DNA from: Lepidodermella squamata
Lineage: Eukaryota > Animalia > Gastrotricha
Assembly: GCA_047495785.1 (NCBI GenBank)
Contig: JBLDXI010000066.1
Coordinates: 711,701-775,700 of the forward strand
Direction: 5' to 3'
Length of the DNA stretch: 64,000 bases
Under the pieces are notes generated by a model. That model made no database searches, was not told the DNA's origin, and was given only the letters and a program-made list of their open reading frames with translations. Below are positions 7,797 to 64,000 of the stretch, piece by piece; position 1 is the first letter of the stretch; each line of letters begins with the position of its first letter. A program made the translations under genes and the position numbers.

Positions 7797-8093
7797 TCAC
7801 TTGGGCAGCTCTCGGTGGATGTGGTGAACAGCCTCGGCAAATTCTGAAAAAAAATTCAAAAATTAATTAAAATTTCATGGAAAAAATATGAATAAATTCT
7901 CACCTTTAAAATCGATGCTGCCGTTATGGTTTTGGTCAACCTTAAGCCAGACAGCGTCGATGAGCGGCTCTGGAGCCGGGCGGCCCAGAGCCTCGCTAAC
8001 CGCCACAGCGAATTCCAGCTTGGAAATGCGCCCGGATTTGTTCTTATCCGCAGCATCGAACGCTTTCTTAACTTCAATGGGCGACGGGTTCAT
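7797..8093 (-). CDS. Small two-EF-hand Ca2+-binding protein, copy 1
   Basis: Loops DKNKSGRISKLE and DQNHNGSIDFK|E; phase-1 intron, exon 2 EFAEAVHHIHRELPK*. Confidence 0.85.
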
Positions 8094-8517
8094 CCTTAGT
8101 TTAAAATTTACGAACAATTATAAAAGAATAATTTTTGACGATATGATCACTCGGTCGTATTAACTCGGGTTTTTATATGGCTGGCTGATCCAGGTGTCGA
8201 TGGCGGAAATTCACCAATTATCGGCGGTGTTATTTGCTCAAAAAATACAGGTCCAATTTAGTATGCCACGCTACAGCCTTTACCTATATTGATTATCAGG
8301 TCAATATACAGGAAAAAATACAGGTTAATGAAACGGTAAGTGCGATTTATTTTTTTCTGTTCGACGATATATATACGATGATGCAGGAAATTAAAAGACA
8401 AATAAATTATTAAAATAACATTGACTAGAAAAAAATTAAATAGAGCCTATAATATAAATTATGGTGGTATGAACGAAAAAAATTATTTCAAGTCAATTTT
8501 TTTAATTTTAGTCCTTT

Positions 8518-44181: not shown

Positions 44182-45233
44182 TTAATTTTTCAGTATATTA
44201 TTCCCATTCATAAGCCTGTATCCGACTCGGCTGCGCGAGAACTCTGAAGATTTTGAATCTTTTCGGAACGCGTTCTGTGTATTGCAGCAAAATTCCCTAT
44301 ATTCCGGATATTCTTCAACATTTCTGAAAATGTGATTTTTTTCAAGTCGATAATCATCAATCAGGAGTGGTTCTTTCATTTTCTCTACACTGGAAGATCG
44401 ATAATCGATTTATTTCAAACTTTGATTCGTTTTAGCGATCGAATGACTGTATGAAAATGAAAACGTACTATTATGGACACGGACTGAAGGAATGCGGTTT
44501 TTTTGGCAAGAAATTCGATTGGTCGGACGTTTACGAATAGCCGGAGATCCGTGTGGTACATGGGCGCCACAATGGTATCGTACAGGTCGTTCTTGTCGTA
44601 CAAGCCGTCCTTTTCCTCGGCGAATGGAATAACGAGAGACGTGACGCGGTCGTAGTGCAAACCCACATTATCTCCGACCTAGCAAAATTAAAAAAATAAA
44701 TTAAAAAAGAATAAAAAATTTAGTCTCGACAAAATTGCAATGATTATATAATTTCAAATAATTTCAAAAAAAAAATAAAAAAATTTGAAACATGAAAATT
44801 ACGAAAATTACAATTTTTCAAACAGCAAATTTCGAAACGGTTTTTTAAATTTCTTTAATTTTTAAGTTGAAAAATTTGAAATTCTCTAATTTTCAAAGAA
44901 ATACACACATTTTGGAAAATAAAATTTAAAATTACTCACCTGAACAAAAATCTGGTCCTTATCGGGCACACTAAAGGTTGCCAACGACTTTGTTGACTGT
45001 CAATACGTTGATGCCGACAAGCTTGTAGAAGGTCTGGCGATCGCGGCGCCACACGTTCATGTAGACGACCTTCTCGCTCGAGTGGCGCTAGTAGATGGTC
45101 CACTCCTTGACGAGGCCCTGGCACATGACCGGGTTGTTCGGGTACGCGCGGCTCCAGCAGCGGCTTGTCGGACACGATGCGGCCCTACACGCAGTCGTTG
45201 CTCCCCTTGGACTTGGACGGCTGCGTCCACTTG
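44182..45233 (-). pseudogene. GC-rich host gene fragment, cut by the Maverick and carrying stops/frameshifts
   Basis: NNPVMCQGLVKEWTIY*RHSSEKVVYMNVWRRDRQTFYKLVGINVL..IFVQ|VGDNVGLHYD; canonical intron 44679-44939; TAG at 45187 and 45090. Confidence 0.6.
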
Positions 45234-45255
45234 AGTAGTAAGGATGGGAACTTTG

Positions 45256-45435
45256 GATCAGTAATGGCAGTACGGCGATTTTTACTATAGCCGTTTGGTA
45301 TAAATATACGCAATTTGGGATCAGTAATGGCAGTACGGCGATTTTTACTATAGCCATTTGGCATAAATATACGAGCGTTGTATCAGTAATAGCACTACGG
45401 TCATTTTTACTATAACCGTTTCACATAAATATATA
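45256..45435. repeat. Subterminal tandem repeat, 3 x 62-63 bp
   Basis: Units begin at 45256, 45319 and 45381: GATCAGTAATGGCAGTACGGCGATTTTTACTATAGCC..TAAATATA. Confidence 0.9.
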
Positions 45436-46268: not shown

Positions 46269-47075
46269 ATGATTATTGGCTATGATGAATCTTATGAAGC
46301 GATTTTCTACCGAGAAGATTTACTTTTTCCTCCGAAATCATTAAATATATCACTAAATACCCTCTCTGGACGCATTACATTCGCTGAAGTCGCCATATTC
46401 GATTTGATTGCCAACTCGAAAGGCCAACATATTACTATCGATCATGTTTATCTCGGCTACAAAAGAGCCGTTGCTCGTCTCTTCCCATCAACCCACGATG
46501 GCACGAATTTTCAACATTTTGCCGAATATAATTTAGCTACCTGTGCTTCCATCGTTGGGCATGATTTATGGAAGAGCATCCTAAATGATACTACCACGCT
46601 CCTTGTTCGCCAGGATGATTTATGGTCGTCCATTTGTCACTCAATTATTTTTACTGAAAGTGATTACCTTTTGGATGATTGCCTCGACGATAGCCCTAAC
46701 CCTATTATTGTGTCTGGCCTGGAAGAAAGTTTCTGGTATGGCCTAACGGCACACCCTACCTACACCGAAGGCCGATATATCTACATCCAACATTTATTTT
46801 ACGATTTGTTAAAAAACTTTAATGGTGTCAGCGTAAACCTGCGGCACATATTCTACCTTTTACTTCGGGCAGGTCGTAGGGTCTCAGTAGAAATGCAGAA
46901 CGTCGTACCTCCACCCTATCAACACGCTCAGAAAATTCCATGGGCATCAGTCATCGATGTTCTTAATGGTCAGCAGGAAGGTGCGAATAGTAAATGGCCG
47001 GGCATCATGCAACGCTCCATCGCACTACAACCTGTCGCTACCGTCTTACCTTTCAACAACAGCTCTTCGACCTAA
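46269..47075 (+). CDS. Maverick hypothetical protein (268 aa); 3' structure unresolved
   Basis: Long ORF without a recognised motif; intron-like GTCAGT..CAG/AAG at 47080-47132/47135 just downstream. Confidence 0.5.
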   Translation: MIIGYDESYEAIFYREDLLFPPKSLNISLNTLSGRITFAEVAIFDLIANSKGQHITIDHVYLGYKRAVARLFPSTHDGTNFQHFAEYNLATCASIVGHDLWKSILNDTTTLLVRQDDLWSSICHSIIFTESDYLLDDCLDDSPNPIIVSGLEESFWYGLTAHPTYTEGRYIYIQHLFYDLLKNFNGVSVNLRHIFYLLLRAGRRVSVEMQNVVPPPYQHAQKIPWASVIDVLNGQQEGANSKWPGIMQRSIALQPVATVLPFNNSSST

Positions 47076-47242
47076 TTTGGTCAGTTTATTTTATTTATAT
47101 AATGCCTTTGTTATTTATTCATTCCTAATCAGAAGGTTCTGGGGCTCAGCAACTCCAACCAATCACCGCGGCCGGCTTCCGTCATTCGATCATTTTTCAT
47201 TTCAAACGCAAGAACTTTGAATATTATTCTTCTTACTGAATT

Positions 47243-48355
47243 TATGGAAGCTTTCTTCAATTCATCTCCGGCTTCTCCATTGTTTTTTTCTAACAATGAT
47301 TTCGTACCAATAAACCTGAATGAACCGAATACGAGTACGTTTACCAAGGAACCTGTTGAACAAACATCAGCCTCTAGATTAGCAAAAACTGCGGTTCGTA
47401 ATCAACCGAAACGCAATGCTAAACATAAAATTCAGAAAAAAGTCATAGGTACTGAGAAGAAATCAGTTGCTAAATCGGCGAAAACGCCATGCAAGGCGAA
47501 AAATAAACCAGCTGTTCCAATTACCAATCATGAGTCACGAAAGCAAGATTCTGTCGCCTCTTTTTTGGTCATGATTTGCCCTCAACCTATCGCAAAGTTC
47601 AAACAGAAACAGCTGAAATCAAGTATGTTACAAGCCTTCAATCAGCCGCATCACAGTCGACCACGATCATAAATTTGACTATATCCTATCCTGTTGATTT
47701 AAAGCTACAATCTAGCACTGAACCTTTTTTTCTATTGAAATCCCCACCATTAAATATGGAAGTAAATAATATACAATATGATATTGATTACTCTATTTCA
47801 AATATTATGGCTAAATCAAGGTCAAATTTTCTATTTAATTTAGATAGTCTAGCCCTAATTTTACCTTGTGCAAAATATAACCCAAAAAAAATGTCGAGTG
47901 CTTTGTTCTATAAAGTACCTGCTTTTAACGCGACGTTTTTATTATTTTCATCCGGAGCTATAATTTGTAGTGGTACCAAAACAGCCTCGAATTGTGTTAC
48001 TGCTTTTGGAGTTCTTCAAGCTACACTCAGAAAAATTGTTAATCGACGGTTGATAATCCGTGACCCAATAATTACTAATATAGTATTGTTCTACGATTTA
48101 CATAAAACTGTCAATCTTAGCCTGCTAGCTTTTCAATTTCCTAAAATATGCGTTTACCAACCAGAATTTTTTCCTGGGTTGCGTATACGTGTTTTCTCCA
48201 AAGTCAGCACTAATGAAAATGAACCAAAGTTAAATGTATCTGCCACACTGTTTCACACTGGAAAAATGATTATGAGCGGCTGTTTTTCGTTATCTCTTAT
48301 AAAAATAGCATTTGTTAAATTGGCGCCTTTTTTTCTGTATATCAAACAACAATAA
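47243..48355 (+). CDS. TBP: TATA-box binding protein-like; core ~47790-48340, probable basic N-terminal extension in another frame
   Basis: Both TBP repeats: ISNIMA..YNPKKMSS..LLFSSGAIICSGTK and ITNIVL..YQPEFFPGLRIR..TLFHTGKMIMSG. Confidence 0.85.
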
Positions 48356-48472
48356 AATGATTTAATGAATGAGGGAAGATTAATCGCGTGCCGTCTTTTT
48401 TTAAGCTAAAATCATTATTTCTACTTTCATCATTATCTATCAATTTTCAAAATTCGCAGCAGAAATAAAAAT

Positions 48473-48789
48473 ATGGCTATCGGTAAATTTCCCCGTTTTT
48501 AAAGTCTTCGTAATTTATTATGCATCAAACAACAGATATTCCGCGTGCTGTTTTACCGATCCTATTGCTGCTATCCCTGGTTACCATTTTAATCAGCTTT
48601 TTCGCTGTTATGGAAGTTCGCAATACTCAAGCCGAACTCCTTCACCTGCGGCAACTTGTCGAGTCTACTGAGCGGATGTTATATAATATAAATGATTTAT
48701 TATTCCACTTAAACGGTGATTTATTTAGCCACATGGCTAATTGTTCGGTTGTCCCTACTTGCCGTAAATTAGCTATAAAGAAGAATTAG
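48473..48789 (+). CDS. Small single-TM + coiled-coil protein; possible intron 48483-48535 (or unspliced start at 48520)
   Basis: AVLPILLLLSLVTILISFFAVM then heptad-like segment; splicing gives in-frame MAIDIPRAV. Confidence 0.5.
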
Positions 48790-48792
48790 GTC

Positions 48793-50004
48793 ATGCCACG
48801 TAATAAACACAATGCGAGACGTCTAGCTGAAGGAGATGCTAAAATAAACCACAGGTCAGACTTGAAATCGTTTGTTTTGAGCTTCTATAATGATCCGAAA
48901 CATGTTGGATCATTTCAAGGCCTGCGCAGATTATACTCAACACTTAAAGCTACATTACCCTTAGAGCTGAGAAATTCCCTTACTCATAAAAAACTAGCTG
49001 AGATTATGAGCCATGATCGAACATATTCATTATATAAACCACTAAGTGTAAGAAACCGGAAGCAATTCATGCAATATGAAGTTTATGCTAGAAGTGACCT
49101 CTTTCTAGGTGATCTTCTTGAAGTTCAAGATTCAAGCCAAGATAATGATGGAACCCGCTATTTACTTACAATCAAAGACTGTTTTACGCGTTATGCTTTC
49201 TGTATTCCCTTACTTAACAAAGAAGGAAATTACACTGCTGAGAAGATCAGTAATTTTTTGAGCAGCCTAACACCTGATTTGCGTTGCCGCTCTTTCACTA
49301 CAGATTCTGGCGGAGAATTTATCAACAAAGAAGCTAAAAAAATATTTAAAAAATTCAATGTTTATTATTACACTACAACCTCCATGTTCAAGTGTTCACC
49401 CATAGAAATTTTCAACCGTTGGCTTCGTAGAACTATTTCGAGGCATCAAATTGCAAATCATACGCTGCGTTACATCGATTACTTACCTTTTTTCTTAGCG
49501 TCTTACAATCAAATGAAAAATCGCAGCACTAGGGTTGCCCCGTTAGAATTATGGCTAGCTTCCCCAGAAGATCCTATAAATTTGGTTGCTTACAATAATG
49601 TTTTTGGAAAAAGAGATCAATTGATGCTTGAAAAGCGCAAGAATTTACTATACAAACCGACTTTTTCTGTCGGTGATTGTGTTAGAATTAGTCGTGTAAA
49701 GGATTTATTTCACAAAGAAGGAGATTTCATTTTTACTGAAGAATATTTTTTTATCGACCGCATAGATACTTGTACCATCCCCGACAAGTATTATCTCCGT
49801 GATACTCTGAATAAGCGTATTCAAGGTAGTTTTTACGATTGGCAGCTTCAGATAGCACATCCGCAAGAAACATATTTAATAGAAAAAGTTCTGAAGCATC
49901 GCACTATAAATGGCAAGAAACAGGCTCTTGTGAAATGGCAAAACTGGCCGATTGAAGCCGCTAGTTGGATTGATGCAAACGAGATCAAAACCTTGGCCTC
50001 ATGA
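48793..50004 (+). CDS. INT: Maverick retroviral-like DDE integrase with C-terminal chromodomain
   Basis: FLGDLL, YLLTIKDCFTRYAF, TTDSGGEF, PIEIFNRWLR, FSVGDCVRIS, YLIEKVLK..LVKWQNWP..SWID. Confidence 0.95.
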   Translation: MPRNKHNARRLAEGDAKINHRSDLKSFVLSFYNDPKHVGSFQGLRRLYSTLKATLPLELRNSLTHKKLAEIMSHDRTYSLYKPLSVRNRKQFMQYEVYARSDLFLGDLLEVQDSSQDNDGTRYLLTIKDCFTRYAFCIPLLNKEGNYTAEKISNFLSSLTPDLRCRSFTTDSGGEFINKEAKKIFKKFNVYYYTTTSMFKCSPIEIFNRWLRRTISRHQIANHTLRYIDYLPFFLASYNQMKNRSTRVAPLELWLASPEDPINLVAYNNVFGKRDQLMLEKRKNLLYKPTFSVGDCVRISRVKDLFHKEGDFIFTEEYFFIDRIDTCTIPDKYYLRDTLNKRIQGSFYDWQLQIAHPQETYLIEKVLKHRTINGKKQALVKWQNWPIEAASWIDANEIKTLAS

Positions 50005-50204
50005 ATAGAGTTCCTACGACTCCACTCTTAGCTTTCCTACAAAAGCCATCTGTGCGTGTAGGGGCCTACATTTTTTTCCTTCTAATAACCGTTTGGCTTA
50101 TAGAAATTTCAAACTATTTATTCAAAACTAAGCTCCCCCCTTTTGGCAACAGCGCAATCCTTACTTTAGAAAAGATAGATAAGGATAACATAACAAATGC
50201 TTAG
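50001..50204 (+). CDS. Small single-TM protein overlapping both neighbours
   Basis: ATGA overlap with the integrase stop; VGAYIFFLLITVWLI. Confidence 0.55.
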   Translation: MNRVPTTPLLAFLQKPSVRVGAYIFFLLITVWLIEISNYLFKTKLPPFGNSAILTLEKIDKDNITNA

Positions 50205-51417
50205 CATCCAGGAGGACTTCTTTATTTATTTACCCTCGAATGCCTCATATTCTCAACATCCGGCGAATACTCCGTCGGATTATCAAGTTGCTCTCCCTGT
50301 CCCAATTTGCGTACCCGATTGCCGTGCTTATGAAGTAGCCCTACTTGAGGCTACAATTCCTGTTAGGTGGAGTAGCATTGATCGTCATACAGTCTATGTG
50401 CTTGATTGTAACTGGCTGAAATCTTTTAAAAACGACATTATTGCTAATTATTTAACAAATCCTGGCTCTTTGCCACATCGGATGAAAAGTTTCAACAATC
50501 CATGGGAAACTGGCTTTATTAACAAAGTAAATTTCGGAGGTGAATATTTTGCGAATATAACCAAACTAATCGATCACTTTAATGAAAAAATATCCATCTC
50601 AAGTAGTAATGGCTCTATTTTTGCTCATTATGATTCAGTCAACAAAAAAACTAAAATTACCTGTAAATGGCCATATTCTATGTTTATACCTTCAGATTCT
50701 GCTGGCCTCTTAGGTTTTGTGTCTCCAATAGAACAGAATACACCGTCTGGAGTTTTCATTTTTCCCAAGGCCCCAAAAAATGACGAGCCAGAATTTAATG
50801 AAGTTTCCACTTTTGATATAAAGTCAACGTATGCCTTGGCATATGCGTGGAATATGAGCCACCAAATTCGTGAAAATCCACACATTTTATTCAACTCAGT
50901 TGGGATTGTTAGGCTTTCTAGCAGACCAAAACTTAAGGAGGATGCAAATAATGAGACAGCGGCGGTAGAAAATCAAGAAGGCGTAAATTCAGCACAGCAC
51001 TTTGATTTTTCTGAGCAAACAGTAATCACCAAAGATAATGATTTACCGCCTGCCTTTATTTATGCATGCTATGAAGAAAGTGCTACAGCTCAATACAACA
51101 TTCAGTTGAATTATGGCAATAACTCACTGTTCATTTACTGCTCAGTTGCAGCGGATGTTTTTGTTGGAGATTGCCAAGCTAGCCTCCTTCGAATGATAAC
51201 CTATTCTACGATGGCTTCTGCTACGGCAAATTCAGACTTGTCATCACATTTTACAGTGATTTATAACTCGGGCCTATATTTACCTTTAAAAGCCAATTTT
51301 ATAGATTCAATTCAAGTTCAAATCCGCCGCGATAACGGGGCATTGATCGATTTTGTGGATGGTAGCAAAGTTGTATTGCTACTTCATATTCGCCGAAAAA
51401 CCGGAGCCTTATATTAA
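50197..51417 (+). CDS. Minor capsid protein (penton, PX-type)
   Basis: FFIYLPSNAS..NTPSDYQVALP..YEVALLE and LFIYCS..VGD..LLR..YLPL..IQVQIRRDNG..LLLHIRR. Confidence 0.85.
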   Translation: MLSIQEDFFIYLPSNASYSQHPANTPSDYQVALPVPICVPDCRAYEVALLEATIPVRWSSIDRHTVYVLDCNWLKSFKNDIIANYLTNPGSLPHRMKSFNNPWETGFINKVNFGGEYFANITKLIDHFNEKISISSSNGSIFAHYDSVNKKTKITCKWPYSMFIPSDSAGLLGFVSPIEQNTPSGVFIFPKAPKNDEPEFNEVSTFDIKSTYALAYAWNMSHQIRENPHILFNSVGIVRLSSRPKLKEDANNETAAVENQEGVNSAQHFDFSEQTVITKDNDLPPAFIYACYEESATAQYNIQLNYGNNSLFIYCSVAADVFVGDCQASLLRMITYSTMASATANSDLSSHFTVIYNSGLYLPLKANFIDSIQVQIRRDNGALIDFVDGSKVVLLLHIRRKTGALY

Positions 51418-52031: not shown

Positions 52032-53522
52032 ATGGAAGGCTTTGGAGATAATTTTGTTCACCCAGCCTCAGCCTCTTCAATAGTATTATCTTCAGATTTA
52101 GATTTATTTACTGTACCGCCTTCACAGCTTGCTGAAGAAAACCAAATAAGTATAGATGTTTACCCAATTGCCCCTCTTAATAGTTCACCGAACCTGATTG
52201 AGTTTCAAATCGGCCCGTACAATGATTATTTGTGTCTGTCACGCATGCAACTGATGCTCAAGTGGAAAGTAGTTAGAACCCCTTCTGAAGCTCGGAAGAA
52301 AAATGCTGGCGAAGCTGACGATGCATACAACGAGTATAAGGCTAGTCTTTCGGCTACAAATTTACAAAAAGCCCCGCTTTGTTTAGCCCACCACACAATG
52401 TTCAAAACATGCGAGATTTCACTAAATGGGCAACTTTTAAGTGAACAAAATTCATTATACGCTTATCGGGCCTATATTTCAACGCTTTTGTCTCATAATA
52501 CTGATGCAAAAAACACGATATTACAGACACAATTTTGGTATCCTGATACAGCTAAAAAACTGGATAATTTTGACAATTCAAACGAGGGATTTAAAAAACG
52601 GTTGGAAATTGTTCAGGGCGGGAAATCTGTGTGCACCCTGGGACGCCTGTTTGCAGATCCTATGCTGTGTAATAGGCTACTTCTACCTAATGTTGAAGTC
52701 CGCATCAAGCTCTATAGGGCATCTAACAATTTTGCTTTGGTTGGGCCGAGCACAGCTGATCCTCACTCAATCGTCATTGAATCTGCAAAAATTATTGCCC
52801 GGGCTGTTGTTGTGTCGCCGGACATAGTGATTGCTCATACGCGTGCGCTGGAAAAAACTAACGCCAAATATCCTATAATGAGAGTTCGAACAAGGCTTTT
52901 TCACATACCAAGTAGTGTTTTGAGTTACAGTGTAAGTTTGCTCATCGCGCGTTTCTAAGTCAATTTTTAAAACTCTAATGGTTTAACAGATACCACAATG
53001 TATTAATGGTAAGCTTCCAAGGCGTATGTTTTTCTGTTTTTTTGAAGATTCCGCCCTGAATGGAACGGCGGGTAAAAATCCATTGAATGCATTACACAGC
53101 CAGCTATCCCGAATATCGATTTATTTGGGCAATGAACTACATCACTCAACAGCTCCCTTGGAAATGGATTTTGCAAATGGAGATGTCACCAGAGTCTATT
53201 TGGAGCTTCTCAATGCTATCAACCCAGATAACCCTTTCAAGGCATCTACGTTAACTATGGATCAGTTTATTAATGGCTTCACAATTTTTGGTTTCGATTT
53301 ATCGCGCAACTCCTCGTTGCAAAATTACTCAGTTATACGCACAGGTACCTGCAGAGTAGAGTTGAGTTTTGCTGTTCAAACAACAATTGTTACTCAGCTG
53401 TTAGTATTAACTGAAACTGATTCAGTTTTTGAGGTATCATCTTTTTTCATAAAATTAAAATTGCCTTAAAATTCAAATTTTTTAAGATCACACGAACGCG
53501 TGACGTAATTGTTGATTCTTAA
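52032..53522 (+). CDS. Major capsid protein (double jelly-roll, PY-type), 459 aa; introns 52932-52989 and 53434-53486
   Basis: SDLDLFTVPPSQ, YAYRAYISTLL; spliced SYS|IPQCINGKLPRRMFF and SVFE|ITRTRDVIVDS*. Confidence 0.9.
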
Positions 53523-53532
53523 GCAGTTTTTC

Positions 53533-54096
53533 ATGTACAACAATGAATTGGAAGATTTCATCCGGATTGATCCAGTACTAAAAAAGTTTGACATTTTTGT
53601 TGTAGCCGCTGATCAGCTACCACAGCAGCTTCCTATTGTGAAAAATAATCCACAATTGATTATCTGTAACACAGGAAATGTATACAATTCTACAGGAAAG
53701 CACTGGGTCACACTGTTTGTTCACAGCGCACAGCATCCTGATGAGCCCTGTGAGTTTTTCGATAGCCTTAACCTTTCCCCTTCCTATCATAACCTCTATA
53801 TCGACAACTTTTTGAAAGCGAATAGCCAAACAGAAGTGCCGTACATTCATTGCAATAGGTCTTACCAGCATGTTTTTTCACAAATCTGCGGCTTATGGGC
53901 TCTATATTACAGCATGCTTCGAGCGCGAGGTAAAGACATGCACCAAATTTTGAGGCATTTTGATCAGCTTGGATCAAAGAACAATTTGCTTATAAAAGAC
54001 TGTGTACTTTATCATAAATTTAATACATTATATTCCCACTATGGTCTATCTATGAGACCACTTGAAAGAATAAAACCCTGTAACGTTAGATTATAA
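53533..54096 (+). CDS. Adenain-like cysteine maturation protease
   Basis: IICNT, GKHWV, EFFDS, YQ..SQICGLWALYY (His/Asp/Gln/Cys). Confidence 0.9.
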   Translation: MYNNELEDFIRIDPVLKKFDIFVVAADQLPQQLPIVKNNPQLIICNTGNVYNSTGKHWVTLFVHSAQHPDEPCEFFDSLNLSPSYHNLYIDNFLKANSQTEVPYIHCNRSYQHVFSQICGLWALYYSMLRARGKDMHQILRHFDQLGSKNNLLIKDCVLYHKFNTLYSHYGLSMRPLERIKPCNVRL

Positions 54097-54099
54097 AGG

Positions 54100-54943
54100 A
54101 TGAGTGATTTGCGCTGCTGCCCTGGCAACATAAATGAAGCTTTGCCTTTTGTTCACCCTAGCACAATTCTCATTGTTGGGCCGTAAGTGACGATGGAAAT
54201 AAAAGTCAATATATTTTAGTGTAATTTACTCATCTTCAGGTCGGGGAGCGGTAAAACAAGTCTGGTGCTTCAAATCCTACAGGATGCATTCAGTTTTGAA
54301 CTTCCTTTTGAGAGAATTGTCTATTTTTATTCTACTTTCCAACCCATTTACAATGACATAGCCGATGCTGCATTGCAAGTTCACAAAATTAAAGTTGAAT
54401 TCGTAAATTTAGCAGACACAAAAAACAGCAGTAGCGATAGCTTCAGCTTAAAAAATTATATCAACGACAATAACGAGACGCAGCCCCGCTGTTGCCTAGT
54501 ATTTGATGACGTGTATCGCCTATTAACTGAAGACGAAACACTGGTACAGCTTTTTTTAGGAGGGCGGCACTTGAATACGACAACCATTCTCCTTCAACAA
54601 GTTTTGTTTACTCGAGCAAAAAATAGCAGGGAAATTCTGGTTTGCCTCAGAAAATTATTGTTTTTTCTTCTATGTATTTTCTATTCTATAGCAAAATGCA
54701 AACTATTTATTCTATTTTCGCTGCATTTCCGACTCTGCAAGCTTTAGATCATATGCACAACGGCGTTCCCCAATGGGCTGGCGAGGCCTTCTTGAAGCGT
54801 TGAACCAAGCAACTGCTGAATCATCTCACACGCCACTGCTACTGGATAATTGTGCAACTACTCCGGATAATCTCCGCATTCGTTCGAGCAATGGCTTCGG
54901 TAGTAAACCTGGTTACGCTTACATTTTAGTCTCAAAGAAATGA
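54100..54943 (+). CDS. FtsK/A32-like packaging ATPase; introns 54183-54239 and 54640-54691
   Basis: Spliced Walker A IVGP|SGSGKT, Walker B LVFDD, GRHLNTT..LQQ, REIL|QNANYLFYF, TPDNLRIR. Confidence 0.9.
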
Positions 54944-56570: not shown

Positions 56571-59500
56571 TCATTGATCAGCGCTATATCCATGTGGATA
56601 AGTTAGAAAGGAAGCATCGCCGGGGCGTAGCCAACGTTTATCATAGGTTAAACGAATCTTTTTTGTTATATGAACACAATGAATTTCCGATAACGGAGTA
56701 TGCACTTTTTTAAACTGAGTCTGATCCAATTCAGCGATGACGCTGTTTTTGTTGTTATCACCCCGGCCCCCGCTTCCGCTGGTTTCGTTATCGTGGAGAC
56801 TTTGTATTACATGCTTGATGAACAAGAAAAAATCGAGAAGACTGCGTGAATGAAAACTTTGACGTATTCCCTGCGCGTGACGTAAATAATAAAAAACAGA
56901 GGGCGTAACAACAAGTAGCAATTACCTTTAACATTAGCTTGGCTTTGCCGTCAGCAAAAAGTAGGGCATATGCCTTACAGCCCAGTACAACCATTGCAAT
57001 GATGCGTTGCCCTGTATCAAGCTGATCCGCCAAGCCGCCAAGAACGGGTGTGAACTCAATTTTAGTAATTCCAGGCCCTTGAAGGCAAAAAATTGAATCC
57101 GTGTCTAAAACAAAAGACAAAAAACGTAGAGATGTTGGTAGCATAAGCGGCGCTATTCTCTAACCGCTGTAGATAGCACTTTTTGGGCCGACTCGGTACA
57201 GCTCACGAGCCAGTTTCACACGAGCATTAGCTGTTACGAAGGCCGCTGTTATAACTGAGGTGGATCCATTTGGAACGTCGGCATCTTTGGTTGGCCGTGT
57301 TACAATTCGCAAGCGAGAGACATCATCAGAGTTGATGAGTAAGCCTAGTGGTTGAATATCCACAATTTCCAAAGCTGGATTATTTAGCATTTGCTGAAGC
57401 AGAAACGGGGATTTGATATAATCTGTTCTCTCTAGATTAGAATTCATAGCAAATCGACCAAAAAAGCTGTTCAAAACTAATTTGGCGATCGCGCGTAACC
57501 CAGGGTTCTTTTTATCCAACTTGGTGCTATCAATCGTTATACCAATGCGTTCCCATTGCTCCAAATACTGTGCTTTTTGTTCACTAGTAGCACAGTTTGG
57601 CGGCCAGCCGGAGGATTCGGCCTTCAAAATGGTGAATCTTTTAATGAAATCTCTGAAAATTGTATTGCTCTTCTTGAACTCCCATATCTAAAAAAAATAA
57701 CTTGATAGAAGCCATGCATGAGTTGGCTAAACAAAATTATTAACCTCGTAGACTTCCAGCAATCTGTAGCCATGAACATCTGTAGCGTACTTCAGTTCCA
57801 CAGAGCAATACGAACCAATCCAGGACCTTTCATAATCAGAATGGGTGCATTCACGGCTTGAAACGCACAAGTTTGGATTTGCAGTCGACGAACAAGCATA
57901 GCAACATGAGAACACGAGCTTGTTTTGTTTACTACGAAAGCAGAGTACAGGTAGCCAGATGTTTTTCGGCGCTAATACCTAGCAAAATAATGTGGTGATG
58001 ATGAAAGCAGGGAGACGATATGTAGATGCGAAGAGCTTACGCGTGCTTGTACGACACCAAAAAAAGATTCCTTTGAATAAATCTCCTGCAGTTTCTCGTT
58101 GTTTAATCTGAGATCCAAGGTGGATACTTTAGGTGGTCCTATTGCATAGTAGCCATCCATCATACAGCTTGGATATAACGAGTTGAAGTCGGCGGAAATT
58201 ATAGAATAATCGGGCGATGGAAATAAGAAGTCCTTGGTTTGCATCCCGCTTTCCTTACAAATTTGAGCAATCTTTTCCAAATTTTGGTCGCCTGAAGTTG
58301 AGTGTGATTCGGCAATCATAGCCATTAAACGAAAAGCTTCGACCCGCCCTAAAAAGTAGGCATGATGTTTTAATCCCGCGAAGATTAAATAGGGAAAACC
58401 TCCAGTTACCTCCAAAGAAAAACGAACGGCTCTCCATTACATTAGCTATTGTGAGATTATCATAAATCTCCTGTGCTCTCGGGTGTTGTTTGAAACTAGC
58501 TCTAATTTCATGCTCCCAAAAGCTTTGAAGAATGTAACCATTCGAGCGAAACAACTCTTCACGTTCCAAGGTTTGCTTGTAAACTACGCCGTTTGGTTGT
58601 CCAGATAGAAAATTTAGTTGTGAGGCCTCAAAGCATTGCAAGCAGCCATGGACAGCACAACCATGAACCTCGACAATCAGATCGGGTTCACTCGGAATTT
58701 TATCACGACGTGCAACAAAACCGTCGACGCGATAAGGATAACGGTGGCCAGGTATAGATATTCGAACTTCTTGACGTGAGTTCTGAGCGTGTTTCATTGA
58801 ACCATAAGTTTCAGGGTCAGACTCCATCAGAAATTGAAGAAAAGCTATCGAGAGCCTGCTGTGTGAATCCTTGCCACAGTAGCCAGCGGTCGGGATGACA
58901 GGTAATGTATCCTTCGTAAGAAACAGCTTGCGGAAGCATGTGCTTGTGAGAGAAGCTAGTGTGATGCATTCTTTAAAGGCATCAGTAGAACACAACTCCA
59001 GCATTAGCGCCCGAAATTTGATTGACGCCTTTTCCAAAACTAGACAATCCTGTATGCAGTATTGCAGTAACGTGTGGCGAACACTGAACCGTTTCAGTTT
59101 GTTTTCGTTGTAGAAAGTTAGAAATTCTGCTCTTTCAGAAGGAGACATTTTGTCAGGCTCATAGTAGATCATATTAGGCAGCTGTGGGAATTCGAGATTG
59201 AAACTCGAAGGATTACAGCGAATTCAATCACAATAGCTCAAGAAGTTGATGATGTACTTACTTTTCTTTAGTGCATAAGACGTAAGGAAAGAAGGTTTTC
59301 TTGTCTGGGATTCCCATTGTTGCTGGTAAATCCCTGTTGTTGAACAAATACCTGTAAGCAATGTAGTTTCTTAGTGTTTCTTAGGTAACCTACCTTAATC
59401 TGCATTGAAAAAAGAGATATGAATCCAAAAATCTGATTTTTTGTTGTTTGAAATCAATGCATAGTAGAGATCCCTGCCTTTGAAGAATCTTCACTTTAGA

Positions 59501-61427
59501 ACATCGTGTTTGAATTTCTTTCAGTAATAATAAGGAATCGAAATTGGCTGAGTTGTGAGCCAAATAAATCGACTGGTAATTCATAGGTAGAAGCACCCAG
59601 TTTACGAAATCCTCCAGAGGACGACTTCCATAAAAAATATGAAGTCCACAACTAGAATGGCATCGCTGAATCCTCGCTTCGATGCAGTGAGGTATGCATA
59701 CGACCTTTGCAACGATAAGGCATACTTGGAACTCATTGTTGTTATCAGCAAGTGATGGCGAAAATGTCTCAGTGTCCCAAAAAACTAGGTTACGATAACG
59801 TTCCAGTTTATTCGCCGGTTTCAAGGGCTAAAAATACACCAACCACAGTATTTTGAAAAAAGCTGGACTGAAAAAAATGAGTATACCAAGGGAGTCATGA
59901 AGCAGAAGTGTGTGCCATTTTCTTCGTCGCTGGCTTTCAAAGGCTCCTGACAAATGTGACAGCGCCGCCCGGGACACATAGCCTCATGCTTGAGAAAATG
60001 TACAAATTTCCTCCCGCATTTAAAGCATGGATTCTTTTTAGCACATTTGTGGTTTTGCTTACAACGTTCGCTATACAAAACTAAAAACATAAAAAGAGCT
60101 GAATAATAATGAAAAGGTTAAAAACATCAGACCTGCACGACATTGCGGACACCGCGTGTAGTTTTGTTGGTCTGTGTTGGAAATCACACGGCAAATGCTC
60201 CCTGATACACCTAAAATAATATTAATGATAAAAGAAGTGAAATTCAGGTTTTTCATGTAAAAATTACGGCAGGAAGAGCATGCCAACTTGCATCTGTGCA
60301 CAGCCGTACTCGTTTTCGTCTGAAAGCAAGTGGGGCATATTCGTTGTGCATTGCTAAGAGTGGCCTTCATAAAGTTGAGATTCGCAATGACATGAAAATG
60401 ATGACTGTTGGGCTGAGAGACGTCGTTGCGATAAACCAGTAGAACAACAGGAAGCAACCCAAGGCTTACGCGATGATCAAATTCTGGGATTTCCCTAATA
60501 ACATCCTGTGATTCGTACGAGTATACTACGAATCTGTAAGTATTATGTTCAGGATCGATAGCCGAACACAGGGCTGAGTAATGATCATCTAGATTGTAGG
60601 CTGGAAGGTTGAGAGGTAAGCCCGCTTTCTGATATAGCGCCGTGGCTTCGCGAAATTGACGATTGGTTCGCGTACTACGTATCGATTTGAAGGTTGCTTG
60701 AAGAGATGGATCCGTAGGATTCGCCTTCATGTGAGCCAAAGCCACTCCAGTGATGAGAGCTCTGCCCATGCAAAGATTGTTCGTTTCATTCTTGCGCGCT
60801 CCGATTCTAACGATCGATTTGGAGCGAAGAAAAAATTTGTCCAAAGTTTCGTTTATAGCCCGCTCTGCCCGAGAACCACCAACAATTTGACCTAGATCTG
60901 CATTGGGGTTATCAATGACACAGAGACGAATTGTCCACCGACCAGCAAATGAGAGTTCTTCATTACTCTGTAATATTTTTCTCAGTTGATCAAAAATTGA
61001 AATTTCCAGCAACCGATCGCGTTTCATGAAGGGTAGGCTAAGAGGCATCTTCAAGTCGGGGTGGTACAGTGTTAGCCGGCAGAAGGAATTCACAGGTAAA
61101 TCACGATGGATATTTACAACAATATCGAACAGGAAGTTGGCCAGAATATTGAAGCGGGTCTCCAAATCAAATATTAGCCACCTGGTCGGCTGGTACGTTC
61201 TGCACAAATGATCGAATATTATCCAGTCGAGGTTCATCAGCGCCACCAGACAATTGAATCATCGGCCCAAGCGAACTAGAAGATTGGCCATATCTGTTGA
61301 TGTAGGTTGAGGCAAAGTCGGATGTTACGGGCTGAATGAAGTACTCCACAGAAAACATTTTGAATTTTGTAGAATGAATCAGGCGATTACTTCGAATAAA
61401 TGAGTATTGTAAACTATAGTTATCCAT
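56571..61427 (-). CDS. pPolB: Protein-primed family B DNA polymerase with 10 introns and one 1-nt frameshift near 61169
   Basis: Introns 60211-60267, 60081-60132, 59828-59886, 59334-59393, 59204-59261, 58349-58409, 57979-58040, 57688-57744, 57105-57164, 56871-56925 restore WDTET, AHNSANFD, FLDSY, YCIQDC, FFG|GRVE, DFNSLYPS, KLVLNSFFGRF, YS|DTDS, KAYA, K|GI, YDKR. Confidence 0.92.
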
Positions 61428-61544: not shown

Positions 61545-62066
61545 TTATTCATTGGCTGTTTCAATCATCGCTGCAACAGTTAACACCCCAGTTGCAAGGT
61601 CTTGAAACTGAGCTGCATCAAGAGAGACTCCTTGTCTTGAGGGTTGTTTATTTCCTAAAAAGTTAAATCATAAAAAGATTGCTATTACTGTAAATTTGAA
61701 GTAAATACCTTTAGCATCCAGATAAAACCTGCGTATATCTATAAGAATCGGTGAAAATGATGGCACAAAGACACAGACTTCAATTTTGCATTCATGCATC
61801 GAAAATTTAAAGCCTGTGTTGTGAGATAGCAGGGCAAGTTGAGCCTGAGCAACCCAAGCATCATTCGGCGGTCGAAAATAAGGAACGAACTGGCTAAGAA
61901 ATTCGTCTTGTCTAAAGGCGAGTTTTTTAGGCTTATCGTTCTTATCTTTGCGATCAGTCATTATGTAGATGAGATTAGAATCCTGAGGATGCTGTTGAAT
62001 GACCAAGTTACTAGACATGTGATGATTGACTGTCTGGTTAGCAGATTCTACTATCGCCTCAGCCAT
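61545..62066 (-). CDS. PC4/Sub1-domain protein; intron 61655-61708
   Basis: Spliced ILIDIRRFYLDAK|GNKQPSRQGVSLDAAQFQDL matches the PC4 pattern IDIRxYY..PxKKGISL..Q(W/F). Confidence 0.8.
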
Positions 62067-62108: not shown

Positions 62109-62471
62109 TTAAGGGATGGGTTCTTTATATTGGCATAACTTTTCATGCCCAAAAATGAGGTCATAAGTTAGAGTAATGGGACAGCCTTTATCAGAATATT
62201 GGCATTTGTAAATCAAATTCGAGATAATGTTCGATAAAATTACAGGGGGTTTAACGAAATCTTTCCCTGTTAATGATTCGCGGCAAAGTGGACAGCAACA
62301 TACTGTTCGAGCTGAATTTTGAAAAATAGCGAGAACACATTTAGTACAAAATAAATGGCCACAGGGGCGCGTTTGAATAGGATTAAGTAGGATAGATAAA
62401 CAAATTGGACATTGCAAAGATTCAGCGTCTAAAATCTGGCTGTTCGAGAGCACAAGTCTTGTTGGATCCAT
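62109..62471 (-). CDS. C3HC4 RING + TRAF/SIAH-type Zn finger, putative E3 ligase
   Basis: CPIC..PCGHLFCTKC..CPLCR, then CQYSDKGC..HEKLC. Confidence 0.85.
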   Translation of the reverse strand: MDPTRLVLSNSQILDAESLQCPICLSILLNPIQTRPCGHLFCTKCVLAIFQNSARTVCCCPLCRESLTGKDFVKPPVILSNIISNLIYKCQYSDKGCPITLTYDLIFGHEKLCQYKEPIP

Positions 62472-62555
62472 CAATGAGGATTCAAGTCTGAGAGATTACA
62501 GGCGTGATAAGAGAGGCAACATACTGAGAAGCTTGCTTTAGAACCTCAGAGGCAT

Positions 62556-63245
62556 TCAATTATCAGTGTCGATAACAAGCACGGGACATGGTAGGGATTT
62601 GTTTGTAGTCTCAACAGTACACATTTTTTCATGAAACTCATGTACGAGGCGTAAATAATCCAGTGATAATAGCATTTCAGAACCCCGAGCTCTAGCTACG
62701 GCTCTTTGACAAGCTATTTGGGGAGAGGAGCGCAAGTAAATAATAGCTTCAGTTTTTACAAAATTCGGCTCGAAATTATCATACAAATTCATGAGAGCGT
62801 GATATTCGATAGAATTTATGCGCTTGGATGCATACGCACATGGGATAAAGACGTTTTTAGAACAGAAGGGCGTTCGATCATGCAGAACGATAGTATGCGC
62901 CCCGTAGATTTCAGGTTTGTGGTTAGGGGCTGAATAAAGGCCGCACATATCACTCGTGGCTACAATTTGAAAGTTGAACGCATTTTTCATCTGATAGTAA
63001 TCTTTCAAAATGTTAGTTTTATCGTCATCAGTAAAGGACTCCCAACGATGAACAGGCTCGCAAATTGGCCACGCGGTATATCCCTGAAGTTTACGGTTGA
63101 GTGAAGGTAGATTAGTGAGACCCTCGATTAAGGTTGATTTCCCGCTAAAACAAGAGACTTTAAATAGAATTCTATTCGGTGGAGTATATGAGACTTACGC
63201 CCCAATGTTGCCGACTATGCCGAAATGGTAGACTTTAGGATGCAT
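62556..63245 (-). CDS. Deoxynucleoside kinase; intron 63145-63198
   Basis: Spliced P-loop GNIGA|GKST, EPVHRW, FQ, DRT, IYLRSSP..RAVARARGSE, YLRLVHEFHE. Confidence 0.9.
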
Positions 63246-63679
63246 CCAGCTTGCTTCAAGAAATATGCTAAGTGTATTCTTGAAGCATCTCTCTTAAATA
63301 GTCTGAGTGATATTTCCATAAAAGGAAAAAACAGGGAGATGTTTTGTTTGAATTGTTTAAGGTAATTACACCGTAAAGGGTAAAAAATCCTAATTGCTTT
63401 TTATTTTGATAAGTAAAAAATCGCATTGTTTAATTAGGGAGGATGTATAAGATTTATTGACATGATGTTTTCTTATTGAATTACCGACAGCAATTAAGGA
63501 GGATGTATACAATACCAAGAATCTTTGATGAAAAGCATTAAAGCCAGCACTGAGGGGTCAACAGAGCTAAAGGCCCTAATGCATTTTTAAGGAAGATTGA
63601 ATTACAAAAACAATATGCCTGAAAGGAGGTAGCCGCTCACATAAAAATCGAACCTCAGTAACAATATAAATTATAAAAT

Positions 63680-64000
63680 ATGAAGCTGAAGGTAGAGCTA
63701 ACAAGTAACAAAGCTAAAGAACCGACAAAGCATACTAAAGGCTCTGTGGGTTGGGACATCTATTCAGCAGAAGAGACGACACTGCAACCTGGAACCAGGG
63801 GACTGATTCAAACTGATATTAAAATCTGTTTACCACGAGGATATTATGGACAACTATTCAGTCGATCAGGAATGAGCATCAACCATGGAATCGATACGGT
63901 CGCTGGAGTAATAGGTAAGAAGCAAATAATAATGAAAATTACTAATGAATATCTGTATTTTTCATGAATTAAAGACGCCGACTACTCTCACGAGATGTGT
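63680..64000 (+). CDS. dut: Trimeric dUTPase; intron 63915-63974; truncated by the window end
   Basis: GWDIYS, SRSGMS, spliced motif III AGVI|DADY. Confidence 0.9.

Follow-up and report, generated by a model that had tools for sequence, protein, structure and literature searches.

Viral TATA-binding proteins (TBPs) are already known from nucleocytoviruses, mirusviruses and herpesviruses; the present case is a divergent form carried by a Maverick element. According to the accessible part of PMC12529657, the vTBP ORF24 of KSHV brings host RNA polymerase II (Pol II) to viral late promoters, and the accessible parts of two further papers place TBP in mirusviruses, in 59% of the genomes in one of them (PMC10132985; PMC12768974). 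TBP lies outside the core set of Polinton (Maverick) genes, as the first-pass annotation of this locus had stated, in agreement with the eight core genes listed in the accessible text of PMC8097293; by the same text, no particle of any animal Maverick had been seen when it was written. That annotation had left out a published precedent, a TBP label in the legend of Fig. 5 of Starrett et al., 2021 (PMC8502044, accessible in part, and its preprint), attached to a MELD virus with an adintovirus-like PolB. This label is the only mention of TBP in Polinton-type elements that we found in the literature, where figures, Repbase and closed papers may list the gene. By term match, TBP and TATA have no mention in the main texts of PMC10748475, PMC11161782, PMC11131425, 10.64898/2026.10.13.758929 and 10.64898/2026.06.19.733378, and TATA none in those of PMC8097293 and PMC11662393; the supplements of PMC8502044 and PMC10748475 gave no TBP match, and bioRxiv supplements may list the gene.

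The window, i.e. the whole stretch of DNA analysed, comprises 64,000 nt from Lepidodermella squamata (Gastrotricha; GCA_047495785.1, contig JBLDXI010000066.1, positions 711,701-775,700, forward strand). Three sequencing runs were searched for contigs: X1, which may be the source of the window and was not counted as independent, and X2 and X3, which come from two studies and whose RNA status was read from splicing. The X2 and X3 contigs were read as spliced RNA, since they skip 53-nt GT-AG introns that are kept by X1 and since a poly(A) end occurs in X2 at 47329. X2 contigs leave 48812-50014 uncovered and X3 contigs the TBP core, and these holes carry no evidential weight, also as regards DNA carry-over in X2. 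The features of the element are given below, with L001 denoting an independent Maverick locus used for comparison.

45234..45355, no strand: left terminus, with an AGTAGT motif, a likely terminal inverted repeat and 62-63-bp tandem repeats (D13)
46269..47329, plus strand: orphan gene, with a 268-aa ORF (46269-47075) and a 53-nt intron (47080-47132) in its 3' UTR
47309 (AATAAA) and 47329 (poly(A)), plus strand: 3' end of the orphan gene; joint in X2 and X3, poly(A) loose end in X2
47244..47672, plus strand: frame A, a Lys-rich ORF of 142 aa that ends in a stop and overlaps the TBP frame
47534..47755, plus strand: upstream part of frame B, 74 stop-free codons in the TBP frame before the first ATG
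47756..48355, plus strand: TBP core ORF, 199 aa, two repeats, 10-residue insertion in the C-lobe loop
48351..48356, plus strand: AATAAA, a candidate signal overlapping the TBP stop codon
48473..48789, plus strand: small spliced gene with a predicted hydrophobic N-terminus; intron 48483-48535, GT-AG joint in X2 and X3
48793..50004, plus strand: rve integrase with chromodomain (rve E 1.7e-5, below cut-off; 26% to the L001 integrase, E 6e-29)
50197..51417, plus strand: putative minor capsid protein, by position and homology to an L001 ORF (E 4e-7)
52032..53522, plus strand: putative major capsid protein (E 5e-16 and 4e-13 to a 514-aa ORF of L001)
52932-52989 (predicted) and 53434-53486 (joined in X2), plus strand: introns of the putative major capsid gene
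53533..54096, plus strand: putative cysteine protease (Pfam C48 E 0.034, below cut-off; same position as the adenovirus-type C5 protease of L001)
54100..54930, plus strand: A32-like packaging ATPase, split by short introns (Pox_A32 E 1.3e-6, 28.5 bits against 22.8)
56791..61237, minus strand: protein-primed DNA polymerase B, several exons with predicted introns (PF03175 E 4.5e-7, above cut-off; matches the pPolB of L001)
61545..62066, minus strand: PC4-like ORF (exon 2 alone against PF02229 E 0.31, below cut-off; predicted 54-nt intron from 61708)
62109..64000, right arm: RING finger, deoxynucleoside kinase (minus strand) and dUTPase (plus strand, from 63680)

Animal host DNA makes up the first 45 kb of the window; the domains encoded there are fibrinogen C, C-type lectin, ligand-gated channel and arrestin. 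Between 10283 and 38000, multi-pass membrane ORFs, each a long single exon, form two tandem families that interleave; one family has six copies, and the one copy scanned had no Pfam match. The element seems to be inserted in an exon of a minus-strand host gene (44940-45233), with frames that stay open as far as a GT donor near 44940 and no Pfam match in the exon. It begins at 45234 with AGTAGT, the commonest end motif described for vertebrate Mavericks in the accessible text of PMC8097293, and runs off the window end, its right end lying beyond. The same loose end behind 45355 is found in X1 and X2, which hints at a second repeat copy. The TBP gene had been placed between the terminus and the integrase, which holds for the interval from AGTAGT at 45234 to the integrase at 48793; the immediate neighbours are the orphan gene before it and the small spliced gene after it. 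Neither has a Pfam match, and the Atlas leads for the orphan gene next to the terminus are all under 0.9. The capsid names rest on position and L001 homology, since the model of the L001 ORF was unusable (pLDDT 39.6) and a PDB search returned no match; the putative protease had no tblastn match to that of L001.

The TBP gene belongs to the Maverick element, as its GC3 is element-like (0.25, against 0.33-0.39 in four element genes and 0.51-0.53 in two host genes) and its X1 contig depth of 1631-1770, in sequence identical to the window, falls in the same class as the rest of the element. X1 depth over the element as a whole is 1631-1909, in contigs identical to the window, and 51-60 on the flank, with many differences; this hints at many near-identical, recent element copies, depth being no copy number. 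The RING, deoxynucleoside kinase and dUTPase cargo consists of genes common in large DNA viruses, and a contig of a nucleocytoplasmic large DNA virus (NCLDV), L007, also has a deoxynucleoside kinase beside its TBP. The stop of the putative capsid gene and the ATG of the protease gene lie 11 nt apart (53520-53533), and one spliced X2 contig covers both, which is what a shared or read-through transcript would give. The element contains many GT-AG introns of 52-61 nt, also in the capsid, ATPase and polymerase genes: 47080-47132, 48483-48535, 53434-53486 and 54640-54691 (ATPase; X2) are joined in contigs, and 52932-52989, about 54184-54240, one from 61708 and several in 57688-60267 are predicted. 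Intact vertebrate elements are reported without introns in the accessible text of PMC8097293, and introners have been reported in dinoflagellate elements (PMC11957031); introns in Maverick core genes merit separate attention.

The first-pass annotation had described a complete two-repeat TBP core across 47243-48355. This applies to 47756-48355 and not to the whole interval. The 199-aa product matches PF00352 in two stretches (E 1.1e-24, 86.5 bits against a cut-off of 22.9) and 35 distinct PDB sequences at E<=0.001, all of them TBP-containing chains. The TBP fold that had been proposed as a check is present in the AlphaFold2 model, which was built on a TBP alignment and predicts the saddle with a pLDDT of 92.4; superposition on human TBP (1cdw) with Foldseek gave a TM score of 0.80 and an rmsd of 2.5 Å.

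Residues were assigned in yeast numbering, checked against Table 1 of PMC12529657. Of the 17 DNA-face positions in that table, 8 are identical in the Maverick TBP and 7 more carry conservative changes. Three of the four intercalating phenylalanines are kept, the first (Phe99 position) being Met46, and the base-contacting Asn pair (Asn16, Asn108) and the Pro191 equivalent (Pro140) are retained; the canonical residues with retained equivalents are thus Asn69, Asn159, Phe116, Phe190, Phe207, Pro191 and Glu188. In the TFIIB stirrup, Glu188 is kept as Glu137 and Glu186 is replaced by Gln135; Leu205 is changed to Thr, and Lys120 and Lys218 are lost.

On the convex face of TBP, which is gripped by TAF1, TFIIA and Mot1, four of five positions of the helix-2 basic patch and four of five on the TFIIA side are changed, as counted with residue sets that we take to be the relevant ones and applied to the alignment. 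Taken with the net charge of +15 of the core, a kept DNA face with Glu188 and changed TFIIA-side and helix-2 residues are also what a decoy or repressor might look like, one that occupies TATA boxes or ties up TFIIB and so damps host genes (e.g. of defence) or the early genes of the element; that no element-specific motif was found (below) fits such a role as well. We nevertheless consider it distinctly unlikely, as viral TBP homologues of known function activate viral genes, at least in the accessible part of PMC12529657.

Regarding neutral evolution, which the first-pass annotation had raised, conservation in the core is non-random: the consensus residue is matched at 22 of 37 conserved columns (>=90% conserved among 23 cellular-type TBPs) and at 22 of 115 variable columns (Fisher p 7e-6). 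As far as sequence comparison goes, this retention shows long-term constraint, and not present-day selection. Among the run contigs listed for 46950-48900, no TBP-region variant was present at 1% or more.

The interval 47243-48355, previously taken as a single ORF, holds two frames, A ending in a stop at 47672 and B with its first ATG at 47756. From stop to stop, frame A spans 189 codons, a length reached in 0.06% of simulations, and the 74-codon opening of frame B was equalled or exceeded in 2.7% of 5000 composition-matched simulations. The codon score of frame A is 0.112+-0.035 over 47244-47531 and -0.126+-0.043 over 47562-47669, and that of the upstream codons of frame B (47534..47755) is weakly positive, such that the coding signal switches from A to B at about 47550-47565. 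As both frames are longer than expected by chance and the codon signal switches between them, a longer gene seems to hold a frame change, which would be a break or else a programmed frameshift, the latter at the T-run at 47561; the Lys-rich frame A is likely a former or conditional N-terminal extension of TBP. The arrangement is identical in contigs of X1 and X2, and it is not an assembly error, because the X2 contig, from another study, crosses it with 0 gaps. An intron joining the two frames was considered and rejected: 11 GT/GC-AG candidates of 40-74 nt exist, and no contig shows a joint for any of them. For a stimulatory RNA fold behind the T-run, the predicted energy was only -5.3 kcal/mol, which gives no support.

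Six ATGs lie between 47320 and 47756, all upstream of the core ATG, and with the two-frame 5' part they suggest that the output of TBP protein may be low; for the core to be translated, a start site closer to it, reinitiation or a ribosomal frameshift would be required. As the poly(A) site of the upstream orphan gene lies at 47329, its 3' UTR covers the ATG at 47244. These observations would also fit a decaying passenger, a gene that worked in ancestors but that the 5' frame change has cut off in this amplifying subfamily, with little or no protein made today and transposition continuing without TBP or with the protein of another family. A break in a longer ORF would leave just such a pair of coding-like frames, and the ATG at 47244 within a foreign 3' UTR, the six upstream ATGs and the arrangement shared by X1 and X2 contigs all fit this account. 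The core itself speaks against it, as its 199 codons are stop-free, its own ATG stands just before strand 1, as in Maverick TBPs of 168-177 aa, its structural residues are kept, and a spliced contig covers it. We regard decay as unlikely.

The contig in question, from X2, runs ungapped from 47319 to 48481 with 0 differences, covers the whole TBP core and then splices into the next gene; that it spans two genes does not establish one transcript. The gene had been called intronless, which is borne out for the core only. It had further been said to be followed by AATAAA; the motif at 48351-48356 instead overlaps the stop codon, and the X2 contig passes through it without a poly(A) end. No RNA polymerase subunit was found among the element genes within the window, and together with the spliced, polyadenylated transcripts this indicates that the element uses host nuclear Pol II.

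Promoters were searched upstream of the element genes. The pattern TATAA(1-3)G precedes 7 of 15 element ORF starts at a distance of no more than 150 nt, the rate for random windows being 0.136 (binomial p 0.002); the pattern was chosen after looking, and two of the sites (-19, -8) leave too little room before the ATG for the usual TATA spacing. In an unbiased motif search upstream of 8 late-type genes, 44 of 60 and 33 of 60 shuffles were as good, and the same search in L001 gave nothing above shuffles. The best upstream box, TATAAAAG, is canonical, and according to the accessible text of PMC13134418 such a box is readable by host TBP. In L001, the ATPase, PW-like and integrase genes have upstream TATT(T)AAAG boxes resembling the late TATTWAA of KSHV, likewise not above shuffles, and the L001 TBP has Asn at position 124, as ORF24 does.

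TATA-like boxes are also present at 45299, 45430, 45969 and 46091, in the terminal tandem and 130-bp repeats, and the TBP gene itself sits in the terminal arm. The protein might accordingly be pictured as an architectural DNA bender that serves replication, integration or packaging at the terminal TATAAATA repeats instead of promoters. We hold this to be improbable: TATAWAW sites are nearly as dense in the host (1.13 per kb) as in the element (1.33), and the stirrup glutamate, kept here and in 28 of 28 short Maverick-type TBPs (below), points to initiation.

Close relatives of the Maverick TBP were absent at E 1e-30 among 1.84 billion representatives, of which 1196 matched at E<=0.001; identities to the listed matches are 25-40%, the best under 40%. 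Another candidate screen gave 1 match among 192 candidates. No relatives of the TBP were found in viral contigs or phage records, and the element integrase had no alignment in viral contigs. A search with a two-sequence alignment led to a clade of 28 short TBPs ('mini-TBP'). Two of its loci were fetched: L001, an independent Maverick with TBP and a PC4-like ORF (7970-8506, E 6.6e-5), and L002, with TBP beside a Maverick-type ATPase. The gene, whose absence from sister elements had been put forward as an adverse outcome, is thus carried by the Maverick L001. Four further loci, L003-L006 (E about 5e-4), had no match to element proteins and were dropped.

The C-lobe loop of the Maverick TBP, counted from the alignment, has 23 residues; among 162 pattern-matched sequences it has 13 in 101 and 11 in 26, and 22 have 17 or more. 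The long loops include those of P0108 (23) and of the TBP of L007 (17). P0108 is the longest single-stretch match near the top (34%, E 1.5e-17) and groups with L007 (99/82). Three trees leave the Maverick TBP on a long branch; it comes out on the eukaryotic side and, in the careful tree, lies outside both the cellular clade (97/90) and the mini clade (100/99); the 56-row tree is a hand-picked subset of about 240 sequences, with most rows labelled by their tree neighbours. AU tests rejected none of four placements, namely with the mini clade (p 0.147), the large-DNA-virus clade (0.126), cellular eukaryotic TBPs (0.057) and three animal-branch sequences (0.052). The Maverick TBP may have been captured separately, perhaps from a large DNA virus.

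The latter two p values, and a nearest Atlas cluster that is 58% eukaryotic with Nematoda commonest, leave some room for a TRF-like host TBP paralogue, recently captured or merely lying within the element. A mean identity of only 26% to eukaryotic-type TBPs, a position outside the supported cellular clade, an intronless core and the element-like GC3 make this highly improbable.

One X1 contig matches the window at 47775-47813 only. Both of its 30-letter loose ends, read by eye, are stop-free in the TBP frame, and in the 3' one Thr stands at the canonical Thr73 position and Phe, Asp and Leu at the end of strand 1; this single contig may come from another, diverged TBP gene that a sister family in this organism carries.

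Our preferred reading, to which we assign a probability of roughly 55%, is that the Maverick TBP is a private promoter factor that uses host Pol II on the element's own promoters. It would bind and bend TATA-type DNA, recruit TFIIB through the kept stirrup and, by its rewritten convex face, escape TAF1, TFIIA and Mot1, such that host Pol II would be nucleated on minimal promoters of the element outside the control of TFIID and TFIIA, much as KSHV ORF24 achieves by other means. TBP made early could have a role in timing by boosting the capsid, packaging and integrase genes, and the PC4-like protein might help it.

An element-encoded TBP would offer a small, expressible handle on the timing of Maverick capsid and packaging genes, and would extend the herpesvirus trick of combining a viral TBP with host Pol II to endogenous elements of 20 kb. 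As a natural TBP with a largely kept DNA face and rewritten partner faces, it could serve as a probe of the surfaces that initiation needs. Should Mavericks hold, beside the mini clade, a second and separate TBP lineage, the same function would have been captured repeatedly. A much bolder conjecture, on which we would place long odds, is that animal Mavericks run the smallest viral transcription switch known, in which TBP and a PC4-like coactivator commandeer host Pol II without a viral polymerase, TBP having been acquired at least twice (in the mini clade and, in the present form, from a large DNA virus), and a programmed frameshift gating a long Lys-rich TBP and with it entry into a late, particle-making phase.

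Among known systems, cellular TBPs and TRFs (PF00352; 1cdw, yeast 1ytb) share the predicted two-repeat saddle at a TM score of 0.80. The Maverick TBP differs from them in its identity of about 25%, the change of Phe99 to Met, the altered helix-2 basic patch and TFIIA side, a C-lobe loop of 23 residues where most TBPs have 13, and in being borne by a mobile element. The element of PMC8502044 is alike in having a TBP-like gene in a Polinton-type element; there, the gene is a figure-legend label in a section on non-animal datasets, and it is not analysed in the accessible text and supplement.

The mini-TBP clade (P0001, P0018-P0044, L001, L002) resembles the present case in that TBP is carried by a Maverick, in L001 with a PC4-like ORF and in the same gene order as in the window (integrase-minor capsid-PZ-major capsid-protease), and in similar PGLxI and SAxLFHTGK stretches in the C-lobe. 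Its signature of Thr122, Asn124 and Asn213 (28 of 28) and Tyr116 (27 of 28) is, however, entirely missing from the TBP of the window, and its C-lobe loop is short where that of the window is long. Large DNA viruses (Nucleocytoviricota, mirusviruses) likewise carry divergent TBPs, as in L007, where the gene lies beside an NCLDV capsid gene, and in the BFVD matches, and P0108, which groups with L007, has the same 23-residue loop; these are large viruses, and many have RNA polymerase genes of their own.

KSHV ORF24, a viral TBP fold working with host Pol II, provides the working model for the Maverick TBP. According to the accessible part of PMC12529657, it is a 752-aa protein of four domains that belongs to a complex of six members, binds directly to Rpb1, recognises TATT and has none of the TFIIB glutamates. 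Compared with such beta- and gammaherpesvirus vTBPs (ORF24/BcRF1), with their Rpb1-binding and C-terminal DNA-binding domains, the Maverick TBP is a bare core of 199 aa in which Glu137 is kept.
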